The notes under the pieces were generated by a model, which saw only the letters and a program-made list of their open reading frames with translations, made no database searches and was not told where the DNA came from. From Candidatus Saccharimonadota bacterium (lineage in GTDB: Bacteria > Patescibacteriota > Saccharimonadia > Saccharimonadales > Saccharimonadaceae), in the NCBI GenBank assembly GCA_020160975.1, contig JAIUPJ010000001.1, positions 150,001-182,000 on the forward strand: 32,000 nt of DNA, given 5' to 3'. The position numbers and the translations under genes are program-made. Each line of letters begins with the position of its first letter. Positions within the stretch are counted from its first letter, which is position 1. This document shows, piece after piece, positions 1,214 through 25,568 of the stretch.

Positions 1214-1264
1214 CTCAAACTCCTTACGATAGGTTCGACCTGAAGTAATCAGGTATCAATCATC

Positions 1265-1318: not shown

Positions 1319-1338
1319 CGTCACCGCAAAGGGAGAGG

Positions 1339-2862
<1,524 letters not shown>

Positions 2863-2866
<4 letters not shown>

Positions 2867-3729
2867 TTCATCGCCTCCGCACCACCGCTAATCTCGGCTA
2901 GCTCTTGGGTAATTGCACCCTGGCGGGCTTTGTTCATCTCCAGTGTCAAGTCGTCGACCAGGTCAGTCGCGTTGTCGGTGGCGTTTTTCATGGCCAGCAT
3001 GCGCATGCTGTGTTCGCTGGCGCGGCTATCCAGCAAAGCTTGAAACAGACGCGAGCCTATCAGGCGATAGGCGACATCGTCGAGCACGGCTTCGACACTC
3101 GGCTCGTATACGGCGTCACGCACAAAACTCGATACTGGCACCTCTGAAAATCCAGCGGGAAATAGGCGAGCCACCCTCGCTTCTTGGGTGATACTACTGA
3201 CGAATTTTGTATAAATCACGTCGACTGCATCTACTTCGTGAGCTTCAAACGCATCTTTGGCGGTGTTGAGAATCGCATGAAACTGCGAACCCTCGGGGTG
3301 GTCGGGTAGGTCTTCATAGGTTCCCACCACCTCGGTGTCTTTGATGCGCGTCACAAAGGCCGAGGCCTTGCGCCCGACGGCGATTGTCTTGTTCGCCACC
3401 TTGTCAGTATCATCGGATTTCAAGTTCGACACATAGGCCTTGAGGACATTGGCATTGAATGCACCCGCCAAACCCTTGTCGCTGGCAATGACGATAATCA
3501 TGCGCGATTTGATGGGGCGCTCCTCAAACCATTTGTGGTACGTAGTCACACCCTGGCTATTGAGATAGCTCAGCAGTTCGTTGGCGGCGCGCTCATAGGG
3601 CGCTGAGGCCTTGGTAGCATCCTGCGCTCGGCGCATTTTGCTTGCCGCGACCATCTGCATGGCCTTGGTAATCTGCTTGGTTGATTTCACCGAGCGGATG
3701 CGGGATTTTAATTGCTGCGTTGAGGCCAT
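2863..3729 (-). CDS. atpG: F1F0 ATP synthase subunit gamma
   Basis: 288-aa ORF. Gamma-type termini (LKSRIRSVKSTKQITKAMQMVAASKMRRAQ ... ITQELAEISGGAEA). TAATG junction with the atpA stop. Confidence 0.95.
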
Positions 3730-5267
3730 TAGCCCTCAAACCCTTTCGCGACTGATTTGCCGACTTCTTTTAGTGCTTTTTCGACTTCTGCTTGATCGTC
3801 AAGCTTCTTATCACCCTTGTTGAGGGCGCGCATGGCTTCTTTGTGATCAGTCCAGAGGCGAGTCAGGTAGGCTTTTTGAGCATCTTTGATCTTGCTGGCA
3901 GGAACTTTGTCGAACAAGCCTTCGCTGACCGCAAAGATGCTGGCAACTTGCTCCCAGATGCTCATTGGCTGGTATTGCGGTTGCTTGAGAAGTTCTGTCA
4001 GGCGCTGACCACGCTCGATCTGCGCCTTGGTGGCATCGTCGAGATCACTGCCAAATTGTGCAAAGCTGGCGAGCTCGCGGAACTGTGAAAGTCCAAGCTT
4101 CAAGTGGCCAGAAACGCTCTTAACTGCCTTTGTCTGGGCATCGCCACCTACGCGACTGACCGAGAGACCAGCCGAAATTGCCGGGCGAATCCCTTGGTAA
4201 AAGAGGTCTGTCTCCATGAAAATCTGGCCATCGGTGATCGAAATTACGTTGGTAGGAATATACGCCGAGATATCTCCCGCTTGGGTCTCGATAATAGGTA
4301 GCGCCGTCAGGCTGCCAGCACCAAGCTCATCGCTCAACTTGCTCGAACGCTCAAGCAAGCGAGAGTGCAGGTAAAACACATCACCAGGAAAGGCTTCGCG
4401 GCCTGGCGGGCGACGGAGCAGCAGAGACATCTGCCGATACGCCACCGCGTGCTTTGTTAGGTCATCATAAATCATCAATGCATGGCCTTTGTTGTCGCGG
4501 AAATATTCACCCATCGCTGTACCAGCATAGGGAGCCAAGTAGAGCAGAGAGGCTGGGTCAGATGGACCGGTGGCCACCACAATCGTTTGATCCATCACGC
4601 CTTCTTGCTTGAGGCGCTCGACGAGCCGCGCAACCTTTGAGAGCTTCTGGCCAATCGCGACATAGACGTTCACTACCCCTGTCTTTTGCTTGGCTTGGTT
4701 AATCATGGTGTCAAGGGCAATAGCAGTTTTGCCTGTCTGGCGGTCACCAATGATAAGCTCGCGCTGACCACGACCGATAGGGAACATGGCATCGATCGCC
4801 ATAATACCGGTCATCATCGGCTCGTGCACATGCTTACGGCCGAGGACACCAATTGCTTCGCGCTCCACTGCGCCGCGCTCTTTGGTAGTAATCGCAGGGC
4901 CGCCATCGAGCGCTTCACCGAGCGGGCTTACTACACGGCCAAGCAGCTCTGGACCGACTGGAACAGATAGCACCTCGCCTTTGAGCTTTACGCTATCCCC
5001 AGCCGAGACACCTTGGTCACTCCCCAGCAACACCGCACCAATCTCATCTTCCATCAAGTTAAGAGCAAACGCTTCAACCACACCGCTCGCGGTCTCTATC
5101 TGTAGCACCTCGCTGTAGCCAGCACTCGACAATCCGTGAATCCAGGCCACGCCATCTCCGACGCGCGTTACAATGCCTCGTGACTCAAGTTGGTCGCTCG
5201 TGTCGAGCTTCGCAATCGCATCACGCAGGCTTTTTGACAAATCTGTTACTGCTATATCAGCCATCAA
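3729..5267 (-). CDS. atpA: F1F0 ATP synthase subunit alpha
   Basis: 512-aa ORF. Walker [55 protein letters not shown]. Confidence 0.97.
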
Positions 5268-5278
5268 AAGTCCTTTCC

Positions 5279-5659
5279 TTATAGCTTTGCCCGCTTGAGG
5301 GCCTGTAGTTTAGTTCTTACTGTCGCATCGAGCATTTTGCCGGGCGTTTTCACGCGTACGCCACCGATAATCTGCTGATCAACCGTTTCTCTGAAATACA
5401 CGCTGTTGCTACCAATCAATGTTCGGATATCTGCTTTTTCTGCGTCAGTCAGGGCATAGGCAGTGGTAACATCTGCCACTACCACGCTCCGTGCAGCGAG
5501 CTCATCTTCGATTGCCCGCACTACCAGCTCTGCTTCTCGAACGCGACCAGATTCTGTCAGATAGGCGGCAATCTCGGCAATAACGGTCGCTGAGATCGCT
5601 CCATCAACCACCTGGTTTGCAGCATACAGAGCGAGCTTGCGGCGCGACAGTTTGTCCAT
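5279..5659 (-). CDS. atpH: F1F0 ATP synthase subunit delta (OSCP-like), unusually short
   Basis: 126-aa ORF in the delta position. OSCP-like C-terminus ([27 protein letters not shown]). Start shares a TAATG junction with the atpF stop, so no longer in-frame start is available. Confidence 0.8.
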
Positions 5660-6189
5660 TAGTTGAGCGCTTCCTTGATCAAGGTTTTATCAACCTTCGC
5701 ATTGATGGTCTTACCAACGACTTTTTCAGTCGCGAGCGCCACGAGATCAATCGTCTCGTTGTGGAGCGCTTTTTTGGCTGCCAATACATCCTTTGCGATT
5801 GATTCTTGGGCCTCGGCCACGATCCTCTCAGCACTTGACTTGGCTTTCTCTTCAGAAGCCGCAATCATGTTTGTCGCCTCTGTTTTAGCGGTCATCACGA
5901 TGTCACTGGCTTCTTTTTGTGCGTCACGCATGAGTGATTTAATTTTCTCTTCGGCCCTGGCCGCTTCATCCTGAGCTTCTTTGGCGGCTTTTTGGCCTGC
6001 TTCGAGCTCGGCCTCTCGCGTATCGATCATTTTGTTGAGCACAGGGTAGACAAACTTCGAAAGCAGCCACAAAAGCAGCAAGAATGCGATCGACTGCAGT
6101 ACCAAAAGCTTCCAATCAATCCCCAGCGACTCAAACAGCCCCGAATTCTCGGCAGAAGTGTTGGCGACATAGGTTAATGCTGTTGGCAT
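5659..6189 (-). CDS. atpF: F1F0 ATP synthase subunit b
   Basis: 176-aa ORF. Single N-terminal TM (LLVLQSIAFLLLLWLLSKFVYPVL) then a long charged Ala/Glu/Lys helix. Canonical operon position. Confidence 0.85.
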   Translation of the reverse strand: MPTALTYVANTSAENSGLFESLGIDWKLLVLQSIAFLLLLWLLSKFVYPVLNKMIDTREAELEAGQKAAKEAQDEAARAEEKIKSLMRDAQKEASDIVMTAKTEATNMIAASEEKAKSSAERIVAEAQESIAKDVLAAKKALHNETIDLVALATEKVVGKTINAKVDKTLIKEALN

Positions 6190-6207
6190 AGTTCTCGGGC
6201 TCCTTGA

Positions 6208-6423
6208 TTATTTCAAGAACTTTACGAGAATAGCCACCACGAAACCAATGATCGCGAGTGCATCGACAAAAGACACGGCCAGGATCATCAGGCCCCGCAG
6301 GTCACCGATCTTCTCTGGGTTGCGGCCAGCGGCGTTTAGGGCGCCCATGCCGACCAAGCCAGCGCCGATACCAGCACCGAGTGCTGCAATTGCATAAGTG
6401 AGACCAAATGCGAGTGATTCCAT
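6208..6423 (-). CDS. atpE: F1F0 ATP synthase subunit c
   Basis: 71-aa two-helix hairpin. Gly-rich helix 1 (GAGIGAGLVGMGA), polar loop GRNPE, carboxylate in helix 2 (SFVDALAIIG). Confidence 0.9.
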   Translation of the reverse strand: MESLAFGLTYAIAALGAGIGAGLVGMGALNAAGRNPEKIGDLRGLMILAVSFVDALAIIGFVVAILVKFLK

Positions 6424-6477
6424 TATTATTTCTCCTTTAGTTAATTACTTAATTTCTTACGGTCACGAGCACGATTG

Positions 6478-7293
6478 TTATGCCGTCGACACCACCTGCT
6501 TGTCAGCGTGGGTATCGTCCGAGTGCTCGCCGTGGCTCACCATACCGAGCCCGATAAACACTGTCGTAAGCATAAAGAACACATAGGCTTGGATCGAGCC
6601 GATAAATAGCTCAAAAATCATAAACGGCAACAGCGCGATGCCCGCCAGGTATTGGGTCATGAAGCCCACCATGATGATGAGAACCTCACCCGCAAAGACA
6701 TTACCAAATAAACGAAGCGACAGGGCAAGCAGACGCGAAATCTCGGCAATCAGCTCGAGAATACCCTCAAATGCGCCCGCCGGATCGGTGATGGGATTGC
6801 GGAAATACCGGCCGAGATTGCCAAAAAAGCCGTGTGTTTTAATGGCATAAATCTGCACCACTACCATACTGATGATTGCCATCGCGAAGGTGACATTCAT
6901 ATCAGCCACCAAGCCGCGAAATAGTGGCACGCCGCCAACCGTCACAGGGCCGACAAAGGGTAAGATACCCAGCCAATAGTTGACGATGATGATGAAAAAC
7001 AAGCTAATCGACAGAGGAGCTATCCGCCGTGCGAGTGTTTTGTCTCCCAAGACCTGCTCTACCGTACCGAGCAGCATTTCATAGATCATCATCACGAGTT
7101 TAGTCACCACATTGCCACGCCCCGTCTTTGCCGCACGCGCCGTCGAAAACAATGCCCAAATCACCAACGCATAGCCGATTAACCCTAGCAACATCGAGTT
7201 TGTGACTGGAATCGTTCCGAGGTGAAACAACACATCAGCCTTGATGTTGATATGCGGACTGGCCGCAGCAAATTGTGTCAGTGATTGATTCAC
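6478..7293 (-). CDS. atpB: F1F0 ATP synthase subunit a
   Basis: 271-aa multi-TM ORF with the a-subunit signature LSLRLFGNVFAGE. GTG start overlaps the upstream stop (GTGA). Confidence 0.9.
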   Translation of the reverse strand: MNQSLTQFAAASPHINIKADVLFHLGTIPVTNSMLLGLIGYALVIWALFSTARAAKTGRGNVVTKLVMMIYEMLLGTVEQVLGDKTLARRIAPLSISLFFIIIVNYWLGILPFVGPVTVGGVPLFRGLVADMNVTFAMAIISMVVVQIYAIKTHGFFGNLGRYFRNPITDPAGAFEGILELIAEISRLLALSLRLFGNVFAGEVLIIMVGFMTQYLAGIALLPFMIFELFIGSIQAYVFFMLTTVFIGLGMVSHGEHSDDTHADKQVVSTA

Positions 7294-7559
7294 GAATGTT
7301 CCTTATTATTAGAGGCCTTTGTGGCTGCTTTGTACTGCATATATACGAGGACAACGGCCATGATACTACCGATAAAGGTGCCCGCCAGCACGCCCACAGG
7401 GCGGCTCGCGACTAATTTATCGATACCATAACCGATGATCGCACCGCCAAGAACGGGAACGAACATACGCCAGGTTGTGTCACCGATTGTCGCCAGGACA
7501 ACCATCGTAGGTGACGGGTCGGCTGAGCGCGCGCCATCGTTAGTTGGCTTTATCACCAT
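7290..7559 (-). CDS. AtpI/AtpZ-like small membrane protein (atp operon leader gene)
   Basis: 89-aa ORF with two predicted TM helices (MFVPVLGGAIIGYGIDKL; VLAGTFIGSIMAVVLVY). Translationally coupled to atpB. Call rests on position, size and topology. Confidence 0.6.
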   Translation of the reverse strand: MVIKPTNDGARSADPSPTMVVLATIGDTTWRMFVPVLGGAIIGYGIDKLVASRPVGVLAGTFIGSIMAVVLVYMQYKAATKASNNKEHS

Positions 7560-7599
7560 GTACCTCTATACTATATCAGTAGAAAGAAAGAGGTTCAAG

Positions 7600-7803
7600 A
7601 TGCCACGGCGCAACCGCACTCCCAAACACCAGCCTTACCAGCCGACCACTGCCGCGGCACCGCTCAAAAAGCGTTTTGCGAGTAAACAGGCTGCAGCGCG
7701 TGCCGTCGTAGAACTTTCCAAATACCATCTTGATCTGCAGCTCGACATCTACCAGTCACCTGTCGATGGGGGATGGTACTTGACTACTGCAACAGAGCTT
7801 TAG
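7600..7803 (+). CDS. small basic hypothetical protein (67 aa)
   Basis: Internal ATG of track ORF 7435..7803. AAGAGG lies 7 nt upstream. The longer version would overlap the AtpI/AtpZ-like gene on the other strand. Sequence MPRRNRTPKHQ...LDIYQSPVDGGWYLTTATEL. Confidence 0.5.
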   Translation: MPRRNRTPKHQPYQPTTAAAPLKKRFASKQAAARAVVELSKYHLDLQLDIYQSPVDGGWYLTTATEL

Positions 7804-7813
7804 GTCAGCCCTA

Positions 7814-9628
7814 CTAATAGATCGAGTACTGCTGATTGTACACCGTCGCCATCTGAGGCATGCCTTGTCCCGAGAAAGAGCCTGGCGCAAGCTGGATGCC
7901 ATCAATCACCAGGCCGATCGCCGCTGGAGTAGCTCCTGCTGCGTCTGGATTCGCAATATAACTGATATAGCCTGCTGTACCTAGCTGTGGATAGGTGCTT
8001 CCATCCTCATCTGCTAGGTAGGCGTTGTCCGCGATATACATCCTACCATCTGGACCACGGCGAACCTGACCACCACTACGATCATTGGCTAAACTGACGC
8101 TTGGGGAGGTGCGATTTGTCATAATGGTACTAACAATCGACTGGGTGGCTTTTATGCCTGAGGATGATCCCGCGTTGAGATCATATCGTACCAGACTGCC
8201 CGGAAACTTGTGCGTCACATACACATATCGCTCGGCAGGGGAAAGATCTGCCGTATATCCATCATGATCTCCAGTGGTCGCCACGGTGGCGGTCTCCCAC
8301 GATACGTTAAGGCTGACCGCGCCCGTAGTAGGATCAAGGTTCATGTAGTATATCGTTCCACTTGGAGTGGTACTCGATTTGCTGCAAGCAAACGCGCCGA
8401 CCAGCACCAGCATCTTCGTGTAGTCGCCCGAGAAATTGATGGAACCAAAACCGTAAGTACCGTGATTTGTCGGCACGTTGAGACCCGTTCCTAGTTGGCA
8501 CCTTCTTGGCAGCGGGTTTAGCGCCCAGGTAGTCGGCGTCGGGTCAATTGAGCCATCGGTTTTAACAAGAAACCCAATTATTTTTTCTCTACCGGGGGTC
8601 GGACTATAGGTATACACATAATACCCGCCACCGCCCACCTTTGGAACCGCTCCGAGCGCCTCGGCGGAATAACTCTTGTCGGGGTTATTGCCATTATAAC
8701 TGTTTGGAATTCCCAACCCTTTACCCGTACCGAGCATAATGTTCTTTGAGATTACCGCTCCGTTGCCACTGTTTCTTGTCATGTCGATAATGTTGAGATA
8801 GAGTTCACCGAGGCCAGTCTGCGCTTGTCCGGTGTTGCTTATTACCGCATAGCGCGTGCGCTTGACATCGAGAGGAAAGACTGCCGCGCCCTGAGTCGCA
8901 CTACTTGCACCTTTCATAGGATTAGGGTCGCCAGTTTGATCGGCCATTACTGCTCCGGTCTTGTCCCAAACGGTAAGGCCATTGGAGAAGAATTGCAAGT
9001 TACCATACATGTCGTTTACTACGGTCGATCCCTCTTCTATACTAAATGCCATACCGCCGGGAGGAGCCAGCGCAACAGGCATTGCGTTGCCATTCGCCCC
9101 GAAGTCAAGTCTCCCGTTATTACCAAAATACCAGTTTCGTTTGCTCGCACGGTCACCCACAGGGTCGATCTTGTTTGTGGCCTGAAGATGAGACCGCTTC
9201 GTATAGTCTTTCCACGATACTCCTGTCGAGGTTTGGACAAGCTGTGTCGTGCCGTCGACTACTACAATCTTAGACTCCGCCGTCGCTTGGGTCATCCTCG
9301 CGGTGTAGGTAGTTCTGTAGAGCGGTGCCCCTGATGATTGGTTGATAATATAGGCAGACGCCCCTGATTGTACGACGCCTGCGCAATTCGTAGCGGGAGT
9401 GATGCTGACGGCCCCACCTTTGAATGTAGCGTCGTCAAGACACGCCTCGGCGTGTTTGATGCCGCTTTCTGCGGCATCACGCGCCAACGCTTCGTAGTAC
9501 TGCGTGTCGAGTACGGTTCGTACTGACGCCGCACTACCGAGAGTGACCACCATAACCGCAAAAAGGACCGTCCCCACAATCACAACTGTCGGGAGAGCAA
9601 ATCCAGCGCGTAATGTTCTGCGCAACAT
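7814..9628 (-). CDS. PilX-type minor (pseudo)pilin with large C-terminal repeat/propeller-like domain
   Basis: 604-aa ORF. Class III signal-like N-terminus MLRRTLRAG|FALPTVVIVGTVLFAVMVVTL with no Glu at +5. Followed by QYYEALARDAAESGIKHAEACL, reminiscent of PilX N-terminal domains. The rest is Gly/Thr/Ser/Tyr-rich beta-type sequence (ERYVYVTHKFPGSLVRYDL, GPDGRMYIADN). Confidence 0.6.
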   Translation of the reverse strand: MLRRTLRAGFALPTVVIVGTVLFAVMVVTLGSAASVRTVLDTQYYEALARDAAESGIKHAEACLDDATFKGGAVSITPATNCAGVVQSGASAYIINQSSGAPLYRTTYTARMTQATAESKIVVVDGTTQLVQTSTGVSWKDYTKRSHLQATNKIDPVGDRASKRNWYFGNNGRLDFGANGNAMPVALAPPGGMAFSIEEGSTVVNDMYGNLQFFSNGLTVWDKTGAVMADQTGDPNPMKGASSATQGAAVFPLDVKRTRYAVISNTGQAQTGLGELYLNIIDMTRNSGNGAVISKNIMLGTGKGLGIPNSYNGNNPDKSYSAEALGAVPKVGGGGYYVYTYSPTPGREKIIGFLVKTDGSIDPTPTTWALNPLPRRCQLGTGLNVPTNHGTYGFGSINFSGDYTKMLVLVGAFACSKSSTTPSGTIYYMNLDPTTGAVSLNVSWETATVATTGDHDGYTADLSPAERYVYVTHKFPGSLVRYDLNAGSSSGIKATQSIVSTIMTNRTSPSVSLANDRSGGQVRRGPDGRMYIADNAYLADEDGSTYPQLGTAGYISYIANPDAAGATPAAIGLVIDGIQLAPGSFSGQGMPQMATVYNQQYSIY

Positions 9629-9634
9629 ATGTCT

Positions 9635-9643
9635 AGTGTAGCA
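9635..9643 (-). promoter_or_regulatory. extended -10 box (TGcTACACT) 6 nt upstream of the pilin-like ATG, leaderless geometry
   Basis: Minus strand reads TATGCTACACT-agacat-ATG(9628). No SD in between. Confidence 0.5.
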
Positions 9644-9732
9644 TAAGTAGTTTCATCCAGCTACTTGACCCATAGTGCTTATGTTGTTATCATAGACGCT
9701 ATATATAGAGTCTAATCAATAAAGGATCGCGT

Positions 9733-9990
9733 ATGAGTCAAGTCATTCTCTACAGTGCGCCGTGGTGTGCATTTTGCAAAACTGAAAAACAATACCTTGA
9801 TCATCTCGGTGTACCATTTGTGGTACGCGACATCGAAGAAGACGACGGAGCTATGGCAGAACTACTGGCAAAGGTCGGCGGCGAAACCAGTAGTGTACCT
9901 GTCACCGACATCGACGGCACAATTATTCGCGGCTTTGATCGCATCAAGATCGATGCTGCTCTTGAAGAAAAAGGCCTTGTCGAAAAATAA
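9733..9990 (+). CDS. glutaredoxin-like (NrdH/YruB-type) small redoxin
   Basis: 85-aa ORF. CAFC active site near the N-terminus after a beta strand (VILYSAPWCAFCK). SVPVTDIDG matches the cis-Pro region. AAAGGA lies upstream of the ATG. A TTGACC(9665..9670)-17-TATCAT(9688..9693) promoter is possible. Confidence 0.85.
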   Translation: MSQVILYSAPWCAFCKTEKQYLDHLGVPFVVRDIEEDDGAMAELLAKVGGETSSVPVTDIDGTIIRGFDRIKIDAALEEKGLVEK

Positions 9991-10012
9991 TCAATACGTA
10001 TAGTATTTACGC

Positions 10013-10041
10013 TTGATTGAGACATAGTCCAGGGGTATAGT
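10013..10041 (+). promoter_or_regulatory. sigma70-type promoter with leaderless geometry for the AAA+ gene
   Basis: TTGATT (10013..10018), 17-bp spacer, TATAGT (10036..10041), then 6 nt (acccct) to ATG 10048. No SD. Confidence 0.55.
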
Positions 10042-10047
10042 ACCCCT

Positions 10048-11637
10048 ATGTCACAATACGATCCGGCTCCGTCAAACAATCATGAACGAAACAGCCATGT
10101 ATCGCACGGGTACGTTCAAATTGATCTCGGCCCGAAGCACCTTCTCAATGAGTGCGCTTCTACGACCGACCATTCTGAACACGCCTTTTTACATCTGGTG
10201 GAAGCTGATGCGCTTCCAATTTCAGTTGATGAGATTGAGTTTGGGTATCGTTCTGGCGACAACAAAGTTCACCCAAAAATACCGAGCTTTTATGGCACGA
10301 TCGGACTTAACCCCCACTACACCATAGCCAGCAAACTTGATAACTGGCAGCGTGACCTCATCGACACGATCGAAGATGCACTTATCAGTGAGGGCTGCCA
10401 AACGCATCATACGCGACATGAAGATACTGCCGTCTACGTCGAAGTTGGAAATTATCACGCAGCCCGTATTGTCACAGGTGCGAGCACCGACGAGTGTTCA
10501 GTGATTCTTGACATCATGTCGATTGATCACCTCGGTCATGTTATCGAAAGCATGGCATATGATGAGCCAGAGCTATACAGGCCAGACAGAGTAGCAGTGC
10601 TTGAATCAACAGCCCAAATCTTTGCGCTATGCCTGTCAGAGACCATCGAATACTTTAAAGAAGAGCATGATGAAACATATCTCAATCTTCAACTCAAGCC
10701 AACACGAGTCCGTCAACGTCGTGTTGGGCGCGGGGTCGTCAAGGCATCAGAAACACCTGAAGCCCCCACGGCTGTCATTATGCCTGGCTACGACGACATT
10801 GATCCTAACCAATTAACATTCGACAGTCTAGGTGGTCTTCACGAACCAAAAAGCCGACTAAAGGCTGTCGCAAACTGCATAAAAGACCCTGAAGGCACGG
10901 CACGATATGGTATTGCCCCGACACACTTTGTCCTACACGGGCCCCCGGGCACAGGAAAGACGAGTCTCGTCAAAGCGCTCGCGGGAGAAGCCGGAGCCAA
11001 GCTCGAAGTCATCCGATCAACCGATATTATCGACATGTGGGTGGGGCAGTCCGGCAAGCATCTCCGCGAAGTTTTTGAAAAAGCAATCAATTATGCCGAT
11101 GGTTCTATCATCCTCTTTTTTGATGAATTCGACTCAATTGCCAGTGATGCACATGGAACCAATGAGCACTCCCAGGTGAAGCGTGTTTTTCAAGAGTATG
11201 TGACGAAGATTGAGAAAGACCACTCTCATATCACCATAGCAGCAGCGACGAATTCAGACATGAGCAGACTTGATCGGGCGTTAATTCGATCCGGAATGCT
11301 TGAGCCTATTCCAGTACCATGCCCGACCGAATATGAGCTGGTAGAAGTCTGGGGCACCATCATCACCGAGTCGAGTCGGTCGCTACCTACAACATGGGAT
11401 GCGCCGAGCGACAATCCTTCTGTAGCGGTGCCATTCAGTATCTATGCCGCTGATGTTAATCCTATCAAACTTGCTACCATTTCAAGCGGCCTCACCGGTG
11501 CGGATATTGAATTTGCCCTTGCCGCGGCACGGCGACAAGCCTACGGCATCTTCCGTGAGACTGGCGTCGATACATCCGTCGACTATGCCTTGCTTGAGCC
11601 AATCGTACTTCGGCTCCAAAGAGAGAAGACTGCGTAG
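10048..11637 (+). CDS. AAA+ ATPase (classic AAA clade) with about 280-aa uncharacterised N-terminal region
   Basis: 529-aa ORF. Walker A GPPGTGKT, Walker B IILFFDEFD, sensor-1 AAATN. SRH-like LDRALIRSGMLE replaces the canonical RPGRFD. I do not recognise the N-terminal half. Confidence 0.85.
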   Translation: MSQYDPAPSNNHERNSHVSHGYVQIDLGPKHLLNECASTTDHSEHAFLHLVEADALPISVDEIEFGYRSGDNKVHPKIPSFYGTIGLNPHYTIASKLDNWQRDLIDTIEDALISEGCQTHHTRHEDTAVYVEVGNYHAARIVTGASTDECSVILDIMSIDHLGHVIESMAYDEPELYRPDRVAVLESTAQIFALCLSETIEYFKEEHDETYLNLQLKPTRVRQRRVGRGVVKASETPEAPTAVIMPGYDDIDPNQLTFDSLGGLHEPKSRLKAVANCIKDPEGTARYGIAPTHFVLHGPPGTGKTSLVKALAGEAGAKLEVIRSTDIIDMWVGQSGKHLREVFEKAINYADGSIILFFDEFDSIASDAHGTNEHSQVKRVFQEYVTKIEKDHSHITIAAATNSDMSRLDRALIRSGMLEPIPVPCPTEYELVEVWGTIITESSRSLPTTWDAPSDNPSVAVPFSIYAADVNPIKLATISSGLTGADIEFALAAARRQAYGIFRETGVDTSVDYALLEPIVLRLQREKTA

Positions 11638-11638
11638 G

Positions 11639-13291
11639 CTATTTAGGCCCTATCTGTACTATCTCGCCGCCAATTTTGTCGCGGAAATAGTTGTCGTGGC
11701 TGACGTAAAGGATCGCACCCGAATACTTTTCGAGCGCGGTCTCAAGCTCTTCGATACTCGGCAGATCAAGGTGGTTGGTCGGCTCGTCAAGGATGAGTAG
11801 CTGCGGATCATTTGCCAACATGCTAATCAGCTGGAAACGTGCCTTCTGGCCACCGCTGAGACGGCTGAGTGGCACTTTGCCGTCACTCTCGGTAAAGAGA
11901 TAGTCGGCGAGCAGACTACGCACCTTCGTCGTCGATATTGACAGACCCTTGTCGAGATACATCCGTTCGATCGCTTCAAAGAGCGACAACTCAAAATACT
12001 CTCCGCTCACTTCCTGCTCATAGATACCGATGCGGACATGCGAATCAAGCTTGAGAGTACCCGCAAACACCTTGGGATCACCCACGCCAATCCTGTCGCC
12101 GAGCAGTGCCTTGATGAGCGTCGTCTTGCCCGCACCATTGCGCCCACGCAGCTCCATCGCTTCGCCCTCACGCAGGTCGATATTAACGCCTTCAAATAGC
12201 GGTGCGTCTCCGTAGCCAAGAGCTACATCTTTGGCCTCGACCAATACGTGGTTGCTGCGCGATTGGTCGCTCTTTAACTTCATGCGAATATTGCGCGCTT
12301 TGAACTTTTCATACTGGCCAGCGACTTTGTAGTTGAGGTTCTCGACCGAATCTTTGTCAATCCAAAATGTCGGCTTTTCTTTCGCCTCGAGCTCAGCCAA
12401 TTCTTTGCGACTGATGGTTTCGAGTCGTTTGAATTTCTGAATTGTAGCCGGATTTCGCGCCTTTTCCTTGAGCCGCTGGTAGTCAAGCACCTTTACTTTA
12501 AGGTTAGCGATTCGTTTCTCGATCATCTCAAATTCATTCATGGCAGTGCCAGTATGGACAGCGTTTTGTTTGAGATAGGCATCGTAGTTACCCTTGTAGC
12601 TAGCACAACCACCGTCTTTAAGCTCGATAATTCGGTCGACATGTTTGAGTACATCACGGTCGTGGGTGATGATCAACATCGCCTCGCGCGCGCCCGAAAG
12701 CCAATCAATAAATTGTTTCTTCGCAACATAATCCATATGGTTGGTTGGTTCATCGAGCAGCGCCAGATGCGCATCGCTATGCATGACCTTCACCACTTCA
12801 ACTAGGCGCTTTTGCCCGCCGCTAAGTGAGGAAAGGGGACGGTGCGCCACACCGCTCAGCTGAAAGTTCTCCAGCTCTTGCTCGATATCGCTCTCTATCT
12901 GGTAATAACCTTTTTGCTCGAACCGCTCCAGTGCCTCGCTATATTCGTTGATGAGGCGCATATTGTCACCCATCGTTTCGGGGTAGGTCTCGATAATACG
13001 GCTCAGCTCGGCGTATTCTGGCAGCCCAGCTAGGACATACTGTAGCACCGTCTGGTCGTTGCTCACATGGTGCTCTTGAGCCGTAGCTACCACTGTTGTG
13101 CCACGCTTGAAAATTACTTCACCGGTATAGTCGGTGTCAGTCCCTGCTACGATGCCAAAGAGTGTCGATTTGCCGACACCGTTTCGCCCCACTACGCCGA
13201 CCTTTTCGCCATCGTCCACGCTGAACTTCACCCCGGTCATCAGGATTTTGGGGCCAAACGATTTTTCAGTGATAGAAATATCAGCAATCAT
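11639..13291 (-). CDS. ABC-F family ATPase (two ABC cassettes, no TM domain)
   Basis: 550-aa ORF. Walker A GRNGVGKS and GRNGAGKT, signatures LSGGQKRL and LSGGQKAR, Walker B LALLDEPTNHMD and LLILDEPTNHLD. Charged inter-domain linker. Confidence 0.9.
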   Translation of the reverse strand: MIADISITEKSFGPKILMTGVKFSVDDGEKVGVVGRNGVGKSTLFGIVAGTDTDYTGEVIFKRGTTVVATAQEHHVSNDQTVLQYVLAGLPEYAELSRIIETYPETMGDNMRLINEYSEALERFEQKGYYQIESDIEQELENFQLSGVAHRPLSSLSGGQKRLVEVVKVMHSDAHLALLDEPTNHMDYVAKKQFIDWLSGAREAMLIITHDRDVLKHVDRIIELKDGGCASYKGNYDAYLKQNAVHTGTAMNEFEMIEKRIANLKVKVLDYQRLKEKARNPATIQKFKRLETISRKELAELEAKEKPTFWIDKDSVENLNYKVAGQYEKFKARNIRMKLKSDQSRSNHVLVEAKDVALGYGDAPLFEGVNIDLREGEAMELRGRNGAGKTTLIKALLGDRIGVGDPKVFAGTLKLDSHVRIGIYEQEVSGEYFELSLFEAIERMYLDKGLSISTTKVRSLLADYLFTESDGKVPLSRLSGGQKARFQLISMLANDPQLLILDEPTNHLDLPSIEELETALEKYSGAILYVSHDNYFRDKIGGEIVQIGPK

Positions 13292-13299
13292 CGCTATTT

Positions 13300-13308
13300 A
13301 GTGTAGCA
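13300..13308 (-). promoter_or_regulatory. extended -10 box (TGcTACACT) 8 nt upstream of the ABC-F ATG
   Basis: Minus strand reads TATGCTACACTA-aatagcg-ATG(13291). Same 12-mer as upstream of the pilin-like gene. Confidence 0.45.
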
Positions 13309-13323
13309 TACCTCTGTTTTTAG

Positions 13324-13352
13324 TTGACATTTATATTGTTATTTGTTATAAT
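13324..13352 (+). promoter_or_regulatory. perfect-consensus sigma70 promoter
   Basis: TTGACA (13324..13329), 17-bp AT-rich spacer, TATAAT (13347..13352). Confidence 0.65.
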
Positions 13353-13355
13353 AGA

Positions 13356-13688
13356 ATGACACATGGGCATCCGGCTCATCGAAGCAGAAAGATTTTCACC
13401 ATGACCGCACAGACCGACATCAGACAGCTCGTGGAGTGCGCCGCGCGCCTCGAGACGATTATCAACACGAAGCACTGGTCTGGCGGGATCTTCGTACCGC
13501 TCACCGAGATGCCCTACAAGCTCAGGGACATCGATGCGGTCGCGATCGCCTTGCAGCTCTCAGGTGCACGGCAGACCTGCGACATCACCTACAACGGGGT
13601 CGTCGGAGTGTTCGTGATCATCAACAAGCACTTCGCGACCCGCCTCAACTCGCGCGGCGTGACGGCGAGCATCGATCGCCTTCTCTGA
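13356..13688 (+). CDS. GC-rich orphan protein (95-110 aa), unknown function
   Basis: Track ORF of 110 aa. ATG 13356 lies only 3 nt after the -10 box, so the real start may be ATG 13401 (MTAQTDIRQLVECAARLETI...). About 60% G+C by hand count (181/300 over 13381..13680). No family recognised. Confidence 0.5.
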   Translation: MTHGHPAHRSRKIFTMTAQTDIRQLVECAARLETIINTKHWSGGIFVPLTEMPYKLRDIDAVAIALQLSGARQTCDITYNGVVGVFVIINKHFATRLNSRGVTASIDRLL

Positions 13689-13725
13689 CCAACACCCAGG
13701 AACCAAGCAGACAGGAGGTGAGAAC

Positions 13726-13800
13726 ATGATCGTTCGACTGCGCCGTGTGCTGCAATGCCCGAAGTGTTGCAGCATCTACTGCAATGGTGGGTGCGACTGA
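13726..13800 (+). CDS. candidate 24-aa cysteine-rich micropeptide (MIVRLRRVLQCPKCCSIYCNGGCD)
   Basis: AGGAGG (13713..13718), 7-nt spacer, ATG 13726, TGA 13798..13800, then a strong hairpin from 13810. 5 Cys in 24 residues (CPKCC..C...C). Below the ORF-track size cutoff. Hand-translated codon by codon. Confidence 0.5.
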   Translation: MIVRLRRVLQCPKCCSIYCNGGCD

Positions 13801-13809
13801 ACCGTCCCA

Positions 13810-13867
13810 GTGGGGCCGCTCCGGATTTACATCCGAGCGGCCCCACCAGGGGCGGTATTTTTATTTT
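13810..13867 (+). terminator. strong stem-loop / probable intrinsic terminator closing the cassette
   Basis: GTGGGGCCGCTCCGGAT (13810..13826), loop TTAC, ATCCGAGCGGCCCCAC (13831..13846): 16 bp with one bulged C. A T-rich run TTTTTATTTT (13858..13867) starts 11 nt after the stem, so the geometry is not textbook. Confidence 0.6.
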
Positions 13868-13946
13868 CTTGCAATTGGGAAGTGCCCGACAGCAAGATTA
13901 TGGTTGTGCTTGTGTTTGTTATTTTTTACCGCCACAATTGATAGAT

Positions 13947-14516
13947 ATGGCAGAGTCTATTTATCCATCAATTGTCGAGAGGTTTCGTGGAGGTGCTGCG
14001 CTTGAACTGCGGCCGCAACTTAATGAGTTTGAACCCACGAGTGTACGGTTAACGCGGCTCCGCGAGCTTGGTATCAAGGCTGGTTTTTTGGTTCATCTGC
14101 GCTGGGGTAATGTATTGCCTCATCCGAAGATATCACAGACGCTGCTCGAGACGGCGAGCGATACGAATGCAGCTATCAATTGGCTCTCAGCCAAAATCAC
14201 GATCGATGAAACCGATGGCTGCTGGGCGTTGCCACTGCCGGTTGAGCACGATGATAAGGATCGTGCGCGGTACCCGAGCTTAACGCGCAAGGAATTCGGA
14301 GCAAAAGGGGAGCTTGCACATCGCTTTGTCGTCCGGCGCCTCCTCGGCTCGCTTGCCACCGAGGAGCACCTCGACCATATCTGCCGCGCCCATGCCTGCT
14401 GCAATCCGATGCACCTTGAGGTGGTGACTCATACGACAAATGTCCGACGCGGCCGATACGCGCGCAGTATGACAGAGGGGCAAATTGCGCTGCTTAATTG
14501 GCAAGGCCACTCATAG
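13947..14516 (+). CDS. HNH endonuclease, paralog 1
   Basis: 189 aa from the internal ATG of track ORF 13755..14516. This start is chosen because it aligns with the paralog 2 start (MAESIYPSIVERFR vs MAYEIPASTVERFR) and because the longer version would run through the hairpin. HNH core GELAHRFVVRRLLGSLATEEHLDHICRAHACCNPMHLEVVTHTTNVRRG. Confidence 0.8.
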   Translation: MAESIYPSIVERFRGGAALELRPQLNEFEPTSVRLTRLRELGIKAGFLVHLRWGNVLPHPKISQTLLETASDTNAAINWLSAKITIDETDGCWALPLPVEHDDKDRARYPSLTRKEFGAKGELAHRFVVRRLLGSLATEEHLDHICRAHACCNPMHLEVVTHTTNVRRGRYARSMTEGQIALLNWQGHS

Positions 14517-14717
14517 CCGCGAGCTCATTGTCAATAACCGTGGCAGTAAATCCAGCCGCACCCCGTCGCCTGGTCCAACAATGTGTCTTTCGTGAAGACT
14601 AAGGAACTTTTCTCGATCATGGTCGTTGAAGAACAGCTGTCGCCCAGCGGCGCCCCTGTTGTATAAGTGATAGTAAGCAGGAGCATCATAATGTTTAATT
14701 ACATTTTTAGCAGGCAT
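14511..14717 (-). pseudogene. truncated RAYT / IS200-like (Y1) transposase remnant
   Basis: The first roughly 45 of the 68 aa (MPAKNVIKHYDAPAYYHLYNRGAAGRQLFFNDHDREKFLSLHERHI) match the N-terminal pattern of REP-associated tyrosine transposases (..YHV.NRG..R..IF.D..D...FL..L). The HUH motif and catalytic Tyr region are missing. The tail runs antisense into the 3' end of HNH paralog 1. Confidence 0.55.
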
Positions 14718-14732: not shown

Positions 14733-14878
14733 CCGTACTATAAAAAATACTAGTTTATCTCTTAAAAGGTTCAACCTTTTCGATCTTTTCGATTAATCAT
14801 TGCTGTCGGGGACGACCCGATGGCAAGGTAGTGGTTATGATTGCATAGAGAAGGAGCAGGGTACATAGTAGATACTCT

Positions 14879-17698: not shown

Positions 17699-17705
17699 AT
17701 ATTTT

Positions 17706-18566
17706 ATGCAACAAACGCTTTCTCTTTCGACTGGCACCACTGTTCATTACTGGACACATCGTTCTGAGCTAAAAGCAACGATTGTTATGATTCACGGCAT
17801 TACAGGAAACCACGAAGGCTTTCAGTATATCGAGCCACTGCTTGATACGTACCGGTTAATTATTCCCGACCTCCCAGGGTTCGGCGAGAGCGATCTTCCA
17901 GTTAGTAGCGAGTGGTCTATTGAAGACCTGGCGCGACTGACGAACGAGTTCATAGCAAAGCTCGAGCTTACCGAACCGCCCATTATCCTCGGTCATTCTA
18001 TGGGAGGATTAGTGGTGAGCGCTATGGTAGCGCAAAGTCCTGGGCTTTTTAGTGATATCATTTTGATAAGCCCGGTACCAACCCGCGTCACAAAACGAGA
18101 TAGTCGCTACATAGGAGCCACTCTCGGTGGGCTACATTACAAACTCGGCTCTAGACTCGGTAAATCTGGGGAAAAACTAGTGAAGAGTCGCACAATATCA
18201 GCAGTCACGACTAGTGTGATGACAAAGACTTTTGACAGCGCACGCAAAAAAGACATCCAGCAGCACCACTTCGACAATCTAGAAAGAATTAGTAGTAGCG
18301 CGTTTTACTATGCGCTCCATCAGGATATCAATCGTCAAGGTGCTATCGATTATGCAGACATTCTCAAGAAAAAACGCGTTGCGCTTATCGTCGGAGATGA
18401 TGATATCGTCACACCTCTTGACGAAGAAAAAAAACTTGCTGCTGCTATCGAGCCAGCGCAGTTTACTGTTATTTCAGGAGTCGGACACCTAATTCACTAT
18501 GAGAAAGCGGCCGAGGCCGCCGAAGCGATTAAAGCTTTTTTATCTCCTCGTCAGTCATCGCACTAA
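17706..18566 (+). CDS. alpha/beta-fold hydrolase
   Basis: 286 aa from the internal ATG. HG oxyanion motif (VMIHGITGNHEGF), nucleophile elbow GHSMGG, C-terminal GVGHLIHYEK (catalytic His region). Confidence 0.8.
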   Translation: MQQTLSLSTGTTVHYWTHRSELKATIVMIHGITGNHEGFQYIEPLLDTYRLIIPDLPGFGESDLPVSSEWSIEDLARLTNEFIAKLELTEPPIILGHSMGGLVVSAMVAQSPGLFSDIILISPVPTRVTKRDSRYIGATLGGLHYKLGSRLGKSGEKLVKSRTISAVTTSVMTKTFDSARKKDIQQHHFDNLERISSSAFYYALHQDINRQGAIDYADILKKKRVALIVGDDDIVTPLDEEKKLAAAIEPAQFTVISGVGHLIHYEKAAEAAEAIKAFLSPRQSSH

Positions 18567-21078: not shown

Positions 21079-21975
21079 TTAGTTGCCGAGCACCAGCTTG
21101 TGGGCGTCGACGTTGGCTCGAGGAGCCTCGGCGATGCCGACATGGGTGCTGTTGACGTAGGCGACTTCGATCTCCTGGGGACCAAAAGCACCCTTCCACT
21201 CCTTCACCGCAACTGGCTGATCAACCGTCTCGTAGTCCTTGCCAAACCACATGAAGACGACACGGTTAGCCAGCTGGTAGAGCGAGCGAGAAGCATACGG
21301 ACCACGGCCCGCAAAACTCTTCAACTCCGACGCAACGCGCCAGAGCGGGGTCCGCTTGGCAGCCGCCACTGACTCGTCGATGAAGGTCCGGTGGGCCCCC
21401 GCTTCGATGTTCTCCGGCTTGGGAGCACCAGCCAGTATCTGACCAGCAGGCAACAAGCCAAAAACCGAACCGAAGGGGATGTGCGCGATACTCCGCGAGA
21501 CGTACTTGAGCGGTCCGAAGATCGCCCTGTACGTCATGGGTGCGCCTTCGAGCAGGAGAGTACTGCTCGGCAGACTCACACCTCGTTTCTCGAGAAGCAG
21601 CAATGTGTCGACTGCTCCTCGTGCGCCGAGCGACAAGCCGTCGAAGACGACGTCAGTGTAGTGGTTCGCGCGGATGGCCGTCTCGATTGCCTCTGCGGCC
21701 TTCCGTGCGACACACCCAGGGCAATACAACCCAGTCGCCTTGACGAACAGGAGGTCATACCCGTTGTTGCGATACCAATCGGCAACTGCGCCGAACTGCG
21801 TGTCGACGTCGCCCATCAAGCCGGCGTACAGCACAGCCAGCTTGCGGTTGTTCTCCGCAAGCTTGCTCCGCACGGTCGCACCAGTCGGCATCAGCTGACG
21901 GCTCAGTCCGTCGATGAGAGCCAACAGGATCAGCGCCACAACCACGAGTGAAATGACCTTGATCACCTCAATCAC
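21079..21975 (-). CDS. GC-rich membrane-anchored alpha/beta-hydrolase-like protein
   Basis: 298-aa ORF (GTG start; GTG at 21966 fits the AAGGTAGG SD better). N-terminal TM (VISLVVVALILLALI). GLSLGA nucleophile-elbow-like motif. About 65% G+C by hand count (79/120 over 21301..21420). Confidence 0.55.
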   Translation of the reverse strand: MIEVIKVISLVVVALILLALIDGLSRQLMPTGATVRSKLAENNRKLAVLYAGLMGDVDTQFGAVADWYRNNGYDLLFVKATGLYCPGCVARKAAEAIETAIRANHYTDVVFDGLSLGARGAVDTLLLLEKRGVSLPSSTLLLEGAPMTYRAIFGPLKYVSRSIAHIPFGSVFGLLPAGQILAGAPKPENIEAGAHRTFIDESVAAAKRTPLWRVASELKSFAGRGPYASRSLYQLANRVVFMWFGKDYETVDQPVAVKEWKGAFGPQEIEVAYVNSTHVGIAEAPRANVDAHKLVLGN

Positions 21976-23753: not shown

Positions 23754-25295
23754 TCACTTCTGGGCGCGTTTACCCAATTCGTCGACAAGCTTGCCAATGC
23801 AGTCTCGTAGCTGTTCCGGCGTAAGTTTCTCGGGTGCGTCGCATCCGATCACAGTTACGTCTGAACTCGGCGTGGTCGTTGAAGGCTCCGCGGGAGTGCT
23901 GCTCGAAAGCGACACAACATTGGGGCTGATGGAATCGTTGATGTCGATCTCCACCCTGTACACGACATTACCGCCACGTTCTGCATAGATCTGCCAGGTG
24001 GTCTGACCCACCGGCAAGAACTCTGTCAGCTTTCCCATGGAGGATTCTTCACCCGTGAAGAACGCGGGCTGACGCTGGTTGACGGCGTCGACAACACGGT
24101 TGTAGAGGCGCTGCATGTCAACGACGCTTCCGTCGTTGGCATTCAGCACATACAGATCATGTCGATTGAGCTCACCCATGACAGCTTCATCGGCCGGAAC
24201 GACCGAATACGCCACCACTTGCTGACTCTGCGTAGAGCCAGGGCGCATTGGAGTGACCCAATAGCGCCGACCATCAGAAGCAGTCAACAAGTACTCAGAC
24301 GGGTTGGCCCATTGGCTCGGCACATCGCTGATGGTGTCGTACCCGAAGTCACGCAACCACTTGTTAACCCAGCCAGCTGAGTAGCCGAAGCTCTCTCGCT
24401 GCTGCTTCGCCAAGCTAGCCGGATAAACCGGACCAGGCAACGCGCCAGTCTCGACCTTCTCGACGAGCTCCATTTTTGGTGCGCCCGAAGGTGAACCCGT
24501 GATGATGATGAGCCCCCCGAAACGATCGGTAGTGACGTGCTCGTACCCGCTCTGCTTCCAGGTCGGGATGACGATGACCGGCTCCTTGACGCCAGACTTG
24601 GAGGTCTGCTTGCAGTACCCCCACATGTCGGAGTTGCTGTACAGATTGTCCGGGTACTCGTCGGCGATCAAGTTCGCCAAGTTATGCCCGAATCTGCCGT
24701 CGAAGGCCATGTCCAGCTCGTAGTCGCCATCGAACGTGCACATGCTGGTCCGGCCAGAGCCATCCCACTCAGCGACACCCACGATGGGCTGGCGCTTCTG
24801 TCCGTCACGAATGGCAGACCAAACCGCACCCGAGGCATACTCGATATACGCGAGGCTGTCCTCCATGATGTACGAGAGCTGATCGCTCTCGCTGGCACGC
24901 TTGAGCACGGTCTTGGCGCCCTGGGCGGACGCCATGCGTGCCTCCCACGACATCGCGAACTTCTTCTCGCTGATGCAGGACTGGACGCCGAGGTTGTTGC
25001 CGACATACACACACTCTCCGTTGCTGCGGCTACTCGTGTCAACGAGCTGCTTCAGGCTGGTGGGCATGGCGTCGGCGTTCTCGACGTGCACTGTGGTATT
25101 GCCGGCAAATGACGCCGATCCAGCACCGATGTTGGTGAACCAACTGACGATGCCGAAGGTGGCCACAAGCGCCGCCGCCACGAAGGCGGCAGTGTTTGCT
25201 CGAGCTACTCTCCCATTTAGGTAGAAGTAGCTCAGACCGGCTATCAGGCCAGCGATGAGCAAGAGGCCGAGCGGGGTAGCCCCGACCGGATTCAT
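23754..25295 (-). CDS. GC-rich orphan envelope protein (2 N-terminal TM helices plus large extracytoplasmic domain)
   Basis: 513-aa ORF. TM1 PLGLLLIAGLIAGLSYFYL, TM2 AAFVAAALVATFGIVSWF. Ser/Thr/Pro linker near the C-terminus (SSSTPAEPSTTTPSS) and paired Cys. About 61% G+C by hand count (73/120 over 24661..24780). No family recognised. Confidence 0.6.
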   Translation of the reverse strand: MNPVGATPLGLLLIAGLIAGLSYFYLNGRVARANTAAFVAAALVATFGIVSWFTNIGAGSASFAGNTTVHVENADAMPTSLKQLVDTSSRSNGECVYVGNNLGVQSCISEKKFAMSWEARMASAQGAKTVLKRASESDQLSYIMEDSLAYIEYASGAVWSAIRDGQKRQPIVGVAEWDGSGRTSMCTFDGDYELDMAFDGRFGHNLANLIADEYPDNLYSNSDMWGYCKQTSKSGVKEPVIVIPTWKQSGYEHVTTDRFGGLIIITGSPSGAPKMELVEKVETGALPGPVYPASLAKQQRESFGYSAGWVNKWLRDFGYDTISDVPSQWANPSEYLLTASDGRRYWVTPMRPGSTQSQQVVAYSVVPADEAVMGELNRHDLYVLNANDGSVVDMQRLYNRVVDAVNQRQPAFFTGEESSMGKLTEFLPVGQTTWQIYAERGGNVVYRVEIDINDSISPNVVSLSSSTPAEPSTTTPSSDVTVIGCDAPEKLTPEQLRDCIGKLVDELGKRAQK

Positions 25296-25539: not shown

Positions 25540-25568
25540 ATTATAACAAAGAAAGTATATTTTGTCAA
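25540..25568 (-). promoter_or_regulatory. perfect-consensus sigma70 promoter for the 34-aa/513-aa operon
   Basis: Minus strand: TTGACA (25568..25563), 17-bp spacer, TATAAT (25545..25540). Confidence 0.65.

Follow-up and report, generated by a model that had tools for sequence, protein, structure and literature searches.

The motif hydrophobic-x-CPKCG is the classic knuckle of zinc ribbons and rubredoxins, and the retroviral zinc knuckle, CX2CX4HX4C, is preceded by basic residues. A hydrophobic-x-C-P-x-C-G knuckle is also found in the CPxCG zinc-finger micro-proteins of about 40-70 amino acids (aa), such as Brz of Halobacterium salinarum (PMC2253796) and the HVO_2753-type proteins of Haloferax. 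In mycobacteria, cysteine attenuators are defined by a leaderless first small open reading frame (sORF), a polycysteine tract, downstream cysteine-metabolism genes and a duplex that sequesters the ribosome-binding site (Canestrari et al., bioRxiv 10.1101/834739). Here we describe a cassette in a 32,000-nucleotide stretch (the window) of contig JAIUPJ010000001.1 from a Candidatus Saccharimonadota bacterium, which consists of a consensus promoter, an open reading frame for a 95-aa orphan protein (ORF95), a 24-codon sORF led by a Shine-Dalgarno (SD) sequence, and an intrinsic terminator (Table 1). Our leading, if tentative, reading is that the cassette is an autonomous accessory operon with a translated but dispensable zinc-knuckle-like micropeptide. 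Its parts (promoter, SD, terminator) are textbook, and small cysteine-rich or zinc-finger-like genes missed by annotation beside orphans are already known; only this clade-restricted pair of ORF95 and sORF is new.

In the reading that we favour, a strong, constitutive consensus promoter with an extended -10 element would give an mRNA of about 500 nt, ending at a 22-bp terminator and carrying ORF95, a putative cytoplasmic protein, as the main product. The sORF would initiate independently from the strongest SD of the window. Its peptide, cationic at the N-terminus (MIVRLRRVL) and carrying a minimal Cys4 knuckle (C-P-K-C-G-x3-C-x3-C), would plausibly bind zinc or another metal and serve ORF95 as an accessory partner. 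Between the ABC-F and SmpB genes lies the strain-variable island that houses the unit; HNH endonucleases and a ParB-like gene share it, and in some strains so does a retron-type reverse transcriptase (RT). The micropeptide would be dispensable and fast-evolving, and the downstream HNH gene would not be regulated by the cassette.

Table 1 Features of the cassette and its surroundings in the window, and sORF alleles with the loci that carry them
Feature	Position or carrier	Strand	Details
ABC-F ATPase	end at 13291	minus	5' neighbour of cassette
Cassette	13324..13870	plus	promoter, ORF95, sORF, terminator
Predicted sigma-70 consensus promoter	13324..13352	plus	-35 TTGACA 13324..13329; 17-nt spacer; -10 TATAAT 13347..13352
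Predicted 5' untranslated region	13359..13400	plus	read from sequence
13-codon upstream open reading frame	13363..13404	plus	MGIRLIEAERFSP, then stop; TGA overlaps ORF95 ATG (ATGA)
ORF95, 95-aa orphan protein	13401..13688	plus	G+C at codon positions 1/2/3 (GC1/2/3) = 0.54/0.43/0.86
Intercistronic spacer	13689..13725	plus	contains AGGAGG
Shine-Dalgarno AGGAGG	13713..13718	plus	7 nt before ATG
24-codon sORF	13726..13800	plus	MIVRLRRVLQCPKCCSIYCNGGCD; ATG 13726, TGA 13798..13800
Intrinsic terminator	13803..13870	plus	outer stem 13803..08 / 13849..54; inner 16-bp stem 13810..26 / 13831..46; loop TTAC
HNH_3 endonuclease HNH1, 189 aa	13947..14516		3' neighbour of cassette
68-aa ORF	14511..14717	minus	no Pfam/NCBIfam match
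Second HNH paralogue (HNH2), 187 aa			3' of 68-aa ORF
ParB-like protein, 408 aa		minus	weak similarity to ParB
SmpB gene			last in gene order, 3' of ParB-like gene
sORF consensus allele	L001, L002, L006		MIVRLRRVLQCPKCGSIYCNGGCD
sORF allele G15C	window, L012 (same strain)
sORF allele Q10R + C14R	L003/L004
sORF allele R6H	L008
sORF allele R6C	L010
sORF allele Q10R + Y18F	L011
sORF allele V3G + R6C + K13N	L017/L018
sORF alleles of chimeric L013, two copies	L013		C11S (forward copy); Y18H + G21C

The earlier description of the locus from its letters alone (the sequence-only reading) had presented a self-contained cassette opening on TTGACA-17-TATAAT, and this promoter is present base by base. The -10 element is of the extended type with TG (TGTTATAAT, 13344..13352), the promoter scores 12/12, and perfect TTGACA-N16-18-TATAAT strings occur twice in the window against 0.00 expected from 100 shuffles. 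From assemblies in ENA, Logan and JGI we obtained 18 related loci, all metagenome-derived and from one Saccharibacteria clade, and both hexamers are unchanged across all of them. By its sequence, its conservation and its position before a gene, the element is a predicted sigma-70 consensus promoter. It forms with the terminator a canonical sigma-70 and rho-independent unit, unusual only in the perfection of its promoter, and the two elements are kept in all related loci; the cassette is self-contained, as first described. Transcription probably starts at about 13359-13361, and the predicted 5' untranslated region (UTR) is free of indels in all loci. A conserved hairpin in this 5' UTR was considered and ruled out (z = +0.28).

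The first cistron, for which 95-110 aa had been given, is indeed an orphan and a real gene, but its product has 95 aa, not 110. The G+C periodicity spans the whole of ORF95 in its own frame only and is gone beyond its ends, no antisense ORF spans the gene, and its homologues are 95 aa long, save where gene calls are longer or shorter and in one fusion that arose by deletion. The third-position (GC3) periodicity and the 95-aa homologues together identify ORF95 as a real gene, and we are highly confident in both the gene and its transcription unit. The 110-aa versions in the protein collection use an upstream ATG at 13356, which lies 3 nt past the -10 hexamer and is missing from several alleles. 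An identical protein is already annotated as hypothetical protein LCH21_00890. The G+C counts reported previously, 181/300 over 13381..13680 and 143/300 over 17701..18000, are exact. The GC3 of 0.86 may reflect a foreign origin or an expression-linked codon bias, and codon bias stays an alternative to a high-G+C donor because other orphan genes of the window are also GC3-rich. No paralogous donor cassette for ORF95 or the sORF is present within the window.

A homologue search with both peptides, as had been proposed, returned nothing outside the close clade. For ORF95, a word-indexed search of 5.8 billion proteins found no relatives beyond this clade, and a profile search of 1.84 billion representative proteins added only one borderline repetitive protein (E = 1.8e-4). 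Profile searches of Pfam, PADLOC, PHROGs, NCBIfam and PDB gave no match, and ORF95 was not found by profile scans of GTDB representative genomes, JGI metagenomes and IMG/VR, nor by tblastn among phage or plasmid records. AlphaFold2 run on a 9-sequence alignment produced an unreliable alpha/beta model (pLDDT, its confidence score, 52), and Foldseek of PDB with this model found nothing meaningful. The sORF peptide has no match in Pfam (E <= 10), NCBIfam (0.1) or PHROG (1); a degenerate-pattern scan of GTDB genomes and IMG/VR did not find the sORF outside the clade, nor did an exact SD-ATG string scan of JGI metagenomes. A 45-aa padded query found only P0011, from a foldback-chimeric 1-kb contig.

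The 16-bp stem noted earlier is present, but as the inner part of a larger hairpin of 22 pairs (13803..13854) that starts 2 nt after the sORF stop. A T-rich tract follows (GTATTTTTATTTTCTT, 13855..70), and since the outer stem sets the hairpin directly against the T-tract (13856..13868) we regard the structure as an intrinsic, rho-independent terminator. Of the 21 pairs in the consensus fold of seven divergent versions, four show compensatory double changes, such as U-A to C-G, and C-G to U-A in L008 and L005, and in the loci that lack the sORF the same hairpin lies about 6 nt after the stop of their ORF95 (ORF95'). Folding of 13700..13880, which had been suggested in a search for alternative structures, gave -88 kcal/mol (z = -6.5), a fold dominated by the terminator hairpin, and no conserved alternative structure was predicted in this segment. 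An Rfam scan returned only spurious miRNA-like hairpin matches on the terminator.

The initiation signals of the sORF, AGGAGG, a 7-nt gap and ATG, and its stop codon are exactly as first described. AGGAGG is depleted in the window (4 copies, about 10 expected), and only this copy precedes a start codon. The SD and its spacing are unchanged in all sORF-bearing loci except the forward copy of L013, where the SD is replaced at a chimeric junction. A perfect SD at optimal spacing before an ATG recruits ribosomes, so the sORF is probably, though not assuredly, translated. ATG, frame and stop are intact in 9/9 distinct alleles, with no indels and no nonsense changes, and the G+C periodicity moves into the sORF frame (GC3 0.68, against 0.48/0.52 at positions 1/2). 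The tail of the peptide reads MIVRLRRVLQCPKC(C/G)SIYCNGGCD, where position 15 is C in the window and G in the consensus allele, which thus has the pattern CPKCG-x3-C-x3-C with cysteines at 11, 14, 19 and 23. The five cysteines first counted are all there in the window, but C15 rests on a single T found only in the window allele and in L012, which is the same strain. A six-frame translation of the window shows the CxxC...CxxxC pattern nowhere else. Among the non-synonymous changes, 3/12 create a new cysteine against 4% expected (p = 0.011, post hoc), which hints at selection on cysteine content.

Against this stands an explanation that we hold to be almost as likely as the favoured one, namely that the sORF is a functionless by-product, 13689..13800 being a fragment that was inserted or is decaying, or else plain 3' UTR of ORF95, so that only ORF95, the promoter and the terminator matter and the intact SD, ATG and frame reflect the recent common ancestry of a few close strains. 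A perfect, optimally spaced AGGAGG, in a window where this string is depleted, is very unlikely to be inert to ribosomes, and the nine unbroken alleles, the raised GC3 and the cysteine gains likewise speak for more than a by-product. A number of results nevertheless weigh against a peptide under selection. Of the 17 changes in the sORF, 12 are non-synonymous and 5 synonymous, where neutrality predicts 2.9:1 (p = 0.45). That none of the 17 disrupts the ORF has a probability of 0.15, which is not a significant deficit, and with these two values the allele comparison is too weak to detect purifying selection. In variability the sORF matches the non-coding sequence around it (about 0.12 variable sites/nt in ten loci, like the spacer and the promoter/5' UTR). 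Its cysteines are not conserved, with C14R in L003/L004, C11S in one L013 copy and a count of 3-5 per allele, a turnover that looks neutral. Five loci (L005, L009, L014-L016), those in which the retron-type RT is present, lack the SD and sORF altogether, and there the terminator comes directly after ORF95'; the module of about 112 nt is thus an insertion or deletion between the ORF95 stop and the shared terminator. The conservation that had been asked of the 24-codon frame is therefore found only in part: the frame is never broken in the 9 alleles, but the cysteine codons vary, the changes are not synonymous-only and the five loci do without it. ORF95 itself is weakly constrained, with pairwise ratios of non-synonymous to synonymous change (pN/pS) of 0.44-1.09 against 0.12 for ABC-F, neither product has a homologue beyond the clade, a family or a confident fold, and nothing links the peptide to ORF95 in function. 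On balance we consider a function for the peptide possible but doubtful.

The nearest structural comparison for the peptide is with the CPxCG micro-proteins, with which it shares its tiny size, the hydrophobic-x-C-P-x-C-G knuckle and four cysteines in the consensus. Its weak PDB sequence matches (E 0.01-10) are only to zinc-ribbon knuckles, LysW, eL43, Rpo12 and Nop10, and they include an HVO_2753-like protein. However, the peptide has only 24 aa, it has a single CPxCG whose second half-site, CxxxC, is 4 residues away and too close for a ribbon hairpin, its ligands vary among alleles, and there is no homology; metal binding by the peptide is a prediction. No curated zinc-finger family is matched; the ligand spacing is C11-x2-C14-x4-C19-x3-C23, and the four ligands are intact in 7/9 alleles and broken in L003/4 and the L013 forward copy. 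The retroviral CCHC knuckle is similar in its C-x2-C-(G)-x3/4-[C/H]-x3/4-C spacing and its Arg-rich flank, but this is a resemblance only: the peptide is CCCC, its last spacer is x3 instead of x4, and it has no Pfam zf-CCHC match at E = 10. The idea of a metal-binding or disulfide-rich peptide partnered with the upstream ORF thus keeps its CPKCG knuckle and CxxxC, but it has to accommodate neutral substitutions, lost cysteines and five loci without the sORF.

The sequence-only reading had also proposed that the sORF is a leader peptide whose cysteine codons control read-through into the HNH gene, and it had correctly pointed to cysteine-rich short ORFs with such a role in mycobacteria. In this model ribosomes stalling at the cysteine codons would switch hairpins and control HNH1. 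The window allele, with 5 cysteines in 24 codons, invites the idea, as do the terminator 3' of the sORF and the possible pairings, for GCTGCAA (13749..13755), TTGCAGC (13767..13773) and the second CTGCAA (13779..13784) are all present, allowing GCTGCAA/TTGCAGC or TTGCAG/CTGCAA stems. The two mutually exclusive hairpins inferred from them exist only in the window allele (and L012), whose unique T the perfect pairing needs; the internal hairpin has z = -1.84 in the window, -0.97 in L003 and +0.21 in the consensus allele, which folds no better than shuffled sequence, and it is not conserved. Apart from being a short cysteine-containing ORF on a polycistronic-looking transcript, the sORF has little in common with the mycobacterial attenuators. 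It is not a leaderless first ORF, lying about 365 nt 3' of the promoter as an AGGAGG-led second cistron after ORF95. Its cysteine codons are dispersed and unconserved, and a CC pair occurs only in the window allele (and L012). The gene beyond the terminator encodes an HNH_3 endonuclease, not a protein of cysteine or sulfur metabolism. A conserved duplex sequestering a ribosome-binding site was not found either, the internal hairpin being allele-specific and HNH1 having no SD. A classical attenuator of the trp/his type has, ahead of its terminator, a mutually exclusive antiterminator overlapping the leader ORF; here the terminator is present and covaries, and the folds predicted no conserved alternative pairing with its 5' arm. 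As none of the published defining features of the mycobacterial attenuators is present, we set cysteine attenuation aside as close to refuted, which is a useful negative.

It could also be that translation of the sORF, and not its peptide, is what counts, lowering termination or stabilising the 3' end of the mRNA and so tuning read-through into HNH1. This is unlikely, although a neutral peptide encoded by a preserved ORF is the pattern expected of a purely cis-acting ORF. The sORF stop lies 2 nt from the outer stem (13803..08), which is needed to place the hairpin at the T-tract, the inner stem by itself ending 9 nt short of it, and in the loci without the sORF the ORF95' stop is equally near the same hairpin. 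On the other hand, compact genomes often have a terminator right behind a stop codon, which need not imply regulation, and a conserved antiterminator structure was not found in the folded segment. HNH1 has no SD, begins 80 nt beyond the terminator and is preceded by TTGTGT-17-CACAAT-8-ATG, probably a weak promoter of its own of the leaderless type, as the distance from its -10 to the ATG is like that of other apparently leaderless genes of the window. In many window genes the ATG has no SD but is preceded at 6-8 nt by a -10-like TAnnnT box (13291 -, 10048 +, 16649 -, 26285 +, 29111 +), which on sequence grounds suggests that leaderless mRNAs are widespread in the genome; SD-like GGAG motifs stand mainly before internal operon genes.

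A toxin or bacteriocin-like product had been suggested too. Here ORF95 would be the immunity protein or antitoxin and the cysteine-rich peptide the toxin or the precursor of a ribosomally synthesized and post-translationally modified peptide (RiPP), or the reverse, within a defence island. A compact operon of two small co-transcribed genes behind a strong promoter does recall type II toxin-antitoxin and defence cassettes, as does its strain-variable island with nucleases, a ParB-like protein and, in a subset of strains, a retron RT. The distribution of variation in ORF95 would also fit, for among 13 alleles residues 1-38 are largely fixed (10/38 variable) and residues 39-95 are mosaic (27/57 variable), and its pN/pS is high. 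C-terminal blocks reassort among strains, for example KLRDIDAV/DLTLIEAG and GARQ/DTRS. Co-transcription is plausible, but neither product matches a toxin or antitoxin domain, or any model of PADLOC, Pfam, NCBIfam or PHROG, the second gene has only 24 codons, and the first persists in five loci without it. The peptide lacks both hydrophobic character and a signal sequence, and there is no leader-cleavage motif nearby. Among the neighbours examined there is no radical-SAM protein, LanM/LanB/LanC or other modifying enzyme, peptidase, exporter or transporter, and the adjoining ABC protein, a soluble one of the ABC-F type, has two ATPase domains but matches no membrane domain. In the absence of any toxin, bacteriocin or RiPP context we regard this pairing as quite improbable. 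A broader version, in which ORF95 and the 24-aa Cys-knuckle peptide form an undescribed two-component accessory module, for example a defence or conflict pair, in a hot spot of ultra-small Saccharibacteria genomes that alternatively holds a retron, is also unlikely; if it were true, the peptide would be among the smallest metal-knuckle proteins known, and the three independent cysteine gains would reflect selection on cysteine content.

A different route to the peptide would be a +1 frameshift at the ORF95 stop, which would give a 132-aa fusion of ORF95, a linker and the Cys knuckle beside the 95-aa product. UGA-C is a weak stop context, and the frameshift site of prfB is CUU UGA C. The stop context of ORF95 (13683..13689) is CUC UGA C, from which a +1 shift enters the sORF frame: 13687 and 13726 share a frame, and all alleles keep the 13-codon linker through the spacer open. 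A natural deletion allele (L010, P0009) has even fused the N-terminal part of ORF95 to the sORF in frame. Yet such an open linker arises by chance about half the time, no SD-like stimulator lies upstream, the re-pairing of CUC to UCU would probably be poor, and the perfect SD and ATG of the sORF favour independent initiation; frameshifting is accordingly very improbable. The deletion in L010 removed 130 nt between 10-nt direct repeats (CGATCGCCTT) that in the window lie at 13543..13552 and 13673..13682. The resulting 104-aa called protein joins the N-terminal 50 residues of ORF95 (through ...AGAIA) to the spacer and the sORF, whose ATG is changed to a Leu codon.

If the peptide of the accessory operon that we favour is made, the locus would provide a clean SD-led micropeptide gene in a candidate-phyla-radiation bacterium, one that is invisible to standard gene callers (<30 codons) and tied to a clade-restricted orphan protein whose promoter, in a genome of 1 Mb, is among the strongest possible. 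Orphan genes that obligate epibionts express at high levels are candidates for roles in host interaction or conflict. The general significance is limited by the restriction of the element to one narrow clade and by the near-neutral evolution of the peptide.

The cassette lies in an island whose ABC-F and SmpB flanks are common to all related loci with contigs long enough. The interior differs by strain, with one or two HNH genes and an HNH1 that is partly deleted in L006. Each of the five loci without the sORF has, in place of the ORF95 C-terminus, the sORF and HNH1, a convergent 315-aa RT (L005 609..2096; L014 6355..7863), upstream of which lie about 520 nt of G+C-rich, stem-loop-rich non-coding DNA. 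The best matches of the RT are retron models (PADLOC RT_II-A, 1e-23; NCBIfam retron St85 RT, 1e-24, below the model cutoff), and in the five RT loci we saw no recognisable effector gene co-oriented with it. The RT and the non-coding DNA may be an undescribed Saccharibacteria retron. The window itself contains no RT. Hypermutation of ORF95 by a neighbouring RT, as in diversity-generating retroelements, was considered and ruled out, since the RT best fits retron models, its sequence read by eye shows retron/group-II-type ...ASP... and VTG motifs, not the SQ of those elements, the window has no RT, and the variation of ORF95 is mosaic, not point-wise. Joint acquisition of ORF95 and the RT is likewise unsupported, as GC3 is 0.50 in the RT and 0.92 in the adjoining ORF95'. 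Compared with L001, the window differs at 11-13% of the sites in ORF95 but at <=1% in the HNH2 and ParB-like genes; as far as these comparisons reach, recombination between divergent strains is general in the region, and other segments are equally mosaic.

Two 28-nt inverted repeats, 82% complementary (13868..13895 and 14800..14827), bracket HNH1 and the 68-aa minus-strand ORF, and it is in the segment between them that HNH copy number (1 or 2) and the interior differ among strains. We considered the 68-aa ORF as an IS200/Y1 transposase from its YHxYNRG-like motif, a candidate that no Pfam or NCBIfam match confirms. Upstream of ABC-F, a 529-aa AAA ATPase (10048..11637) matches the anti-phage IetA/IteA models (~1e-24, 8e-22) and fits generic CDC48/FtsH AAA models equally well; it is an unproven defence candidate, and the 604-aa protein beside it (7814..9628) has no match. 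L013 is a 1-kb JGI contig and a foldback chimera centred on the terminator hairpin (783..1077). It holds two different sORF alleles in inverted orientation and is the source of the spurious 49-aa protein P0011; its left part is what we take to be the N-terminus of a DnaK/Hsp70-type chaperone.

Within the 5' UTR of the cassette, the 13-codon upstream open reading frame (uORF) begins about 2-4 nt past the predicted transcription start and is conserved across loci as M[G/S]IRLIE[A/P]E[R/G]FSP*, with 3/3 of its changes non-synonymous. It might, speculatively, pass ribosomes to the SD-less ORF95 by termination-reinitiation. The second perfect TTGACA-17-TATAAT of the window (25540..25568, minus strand) also has TGT before its -10. 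About 75 nt 3' of it lies an SD-led 34-aa ORF (25457..25353, minus strand; MVSDRKRTIIAWSAGITALLAICYAVFGWYSDSE), whose sequence reads as hydrophobic and like that of a membrane peptide, and then a 513-aa orphan gene (23754..25295, minus strand) with a GC3 of 0.74. Unannotatable small ORFs and orphan genes thus follow both perfect promoters of the window. The four Pfam-less genes tested (21079..21975, 23754..25295, 25677..26093 and 13401..13688) are the most GC3-rich in the window; among two-fold codons they use C at the third position of NNY at 0.75-0.90 and G in NNR at 0.84-1.0, and they may form a class of lineage-specific genes that are foreign or expressed at very high levels.

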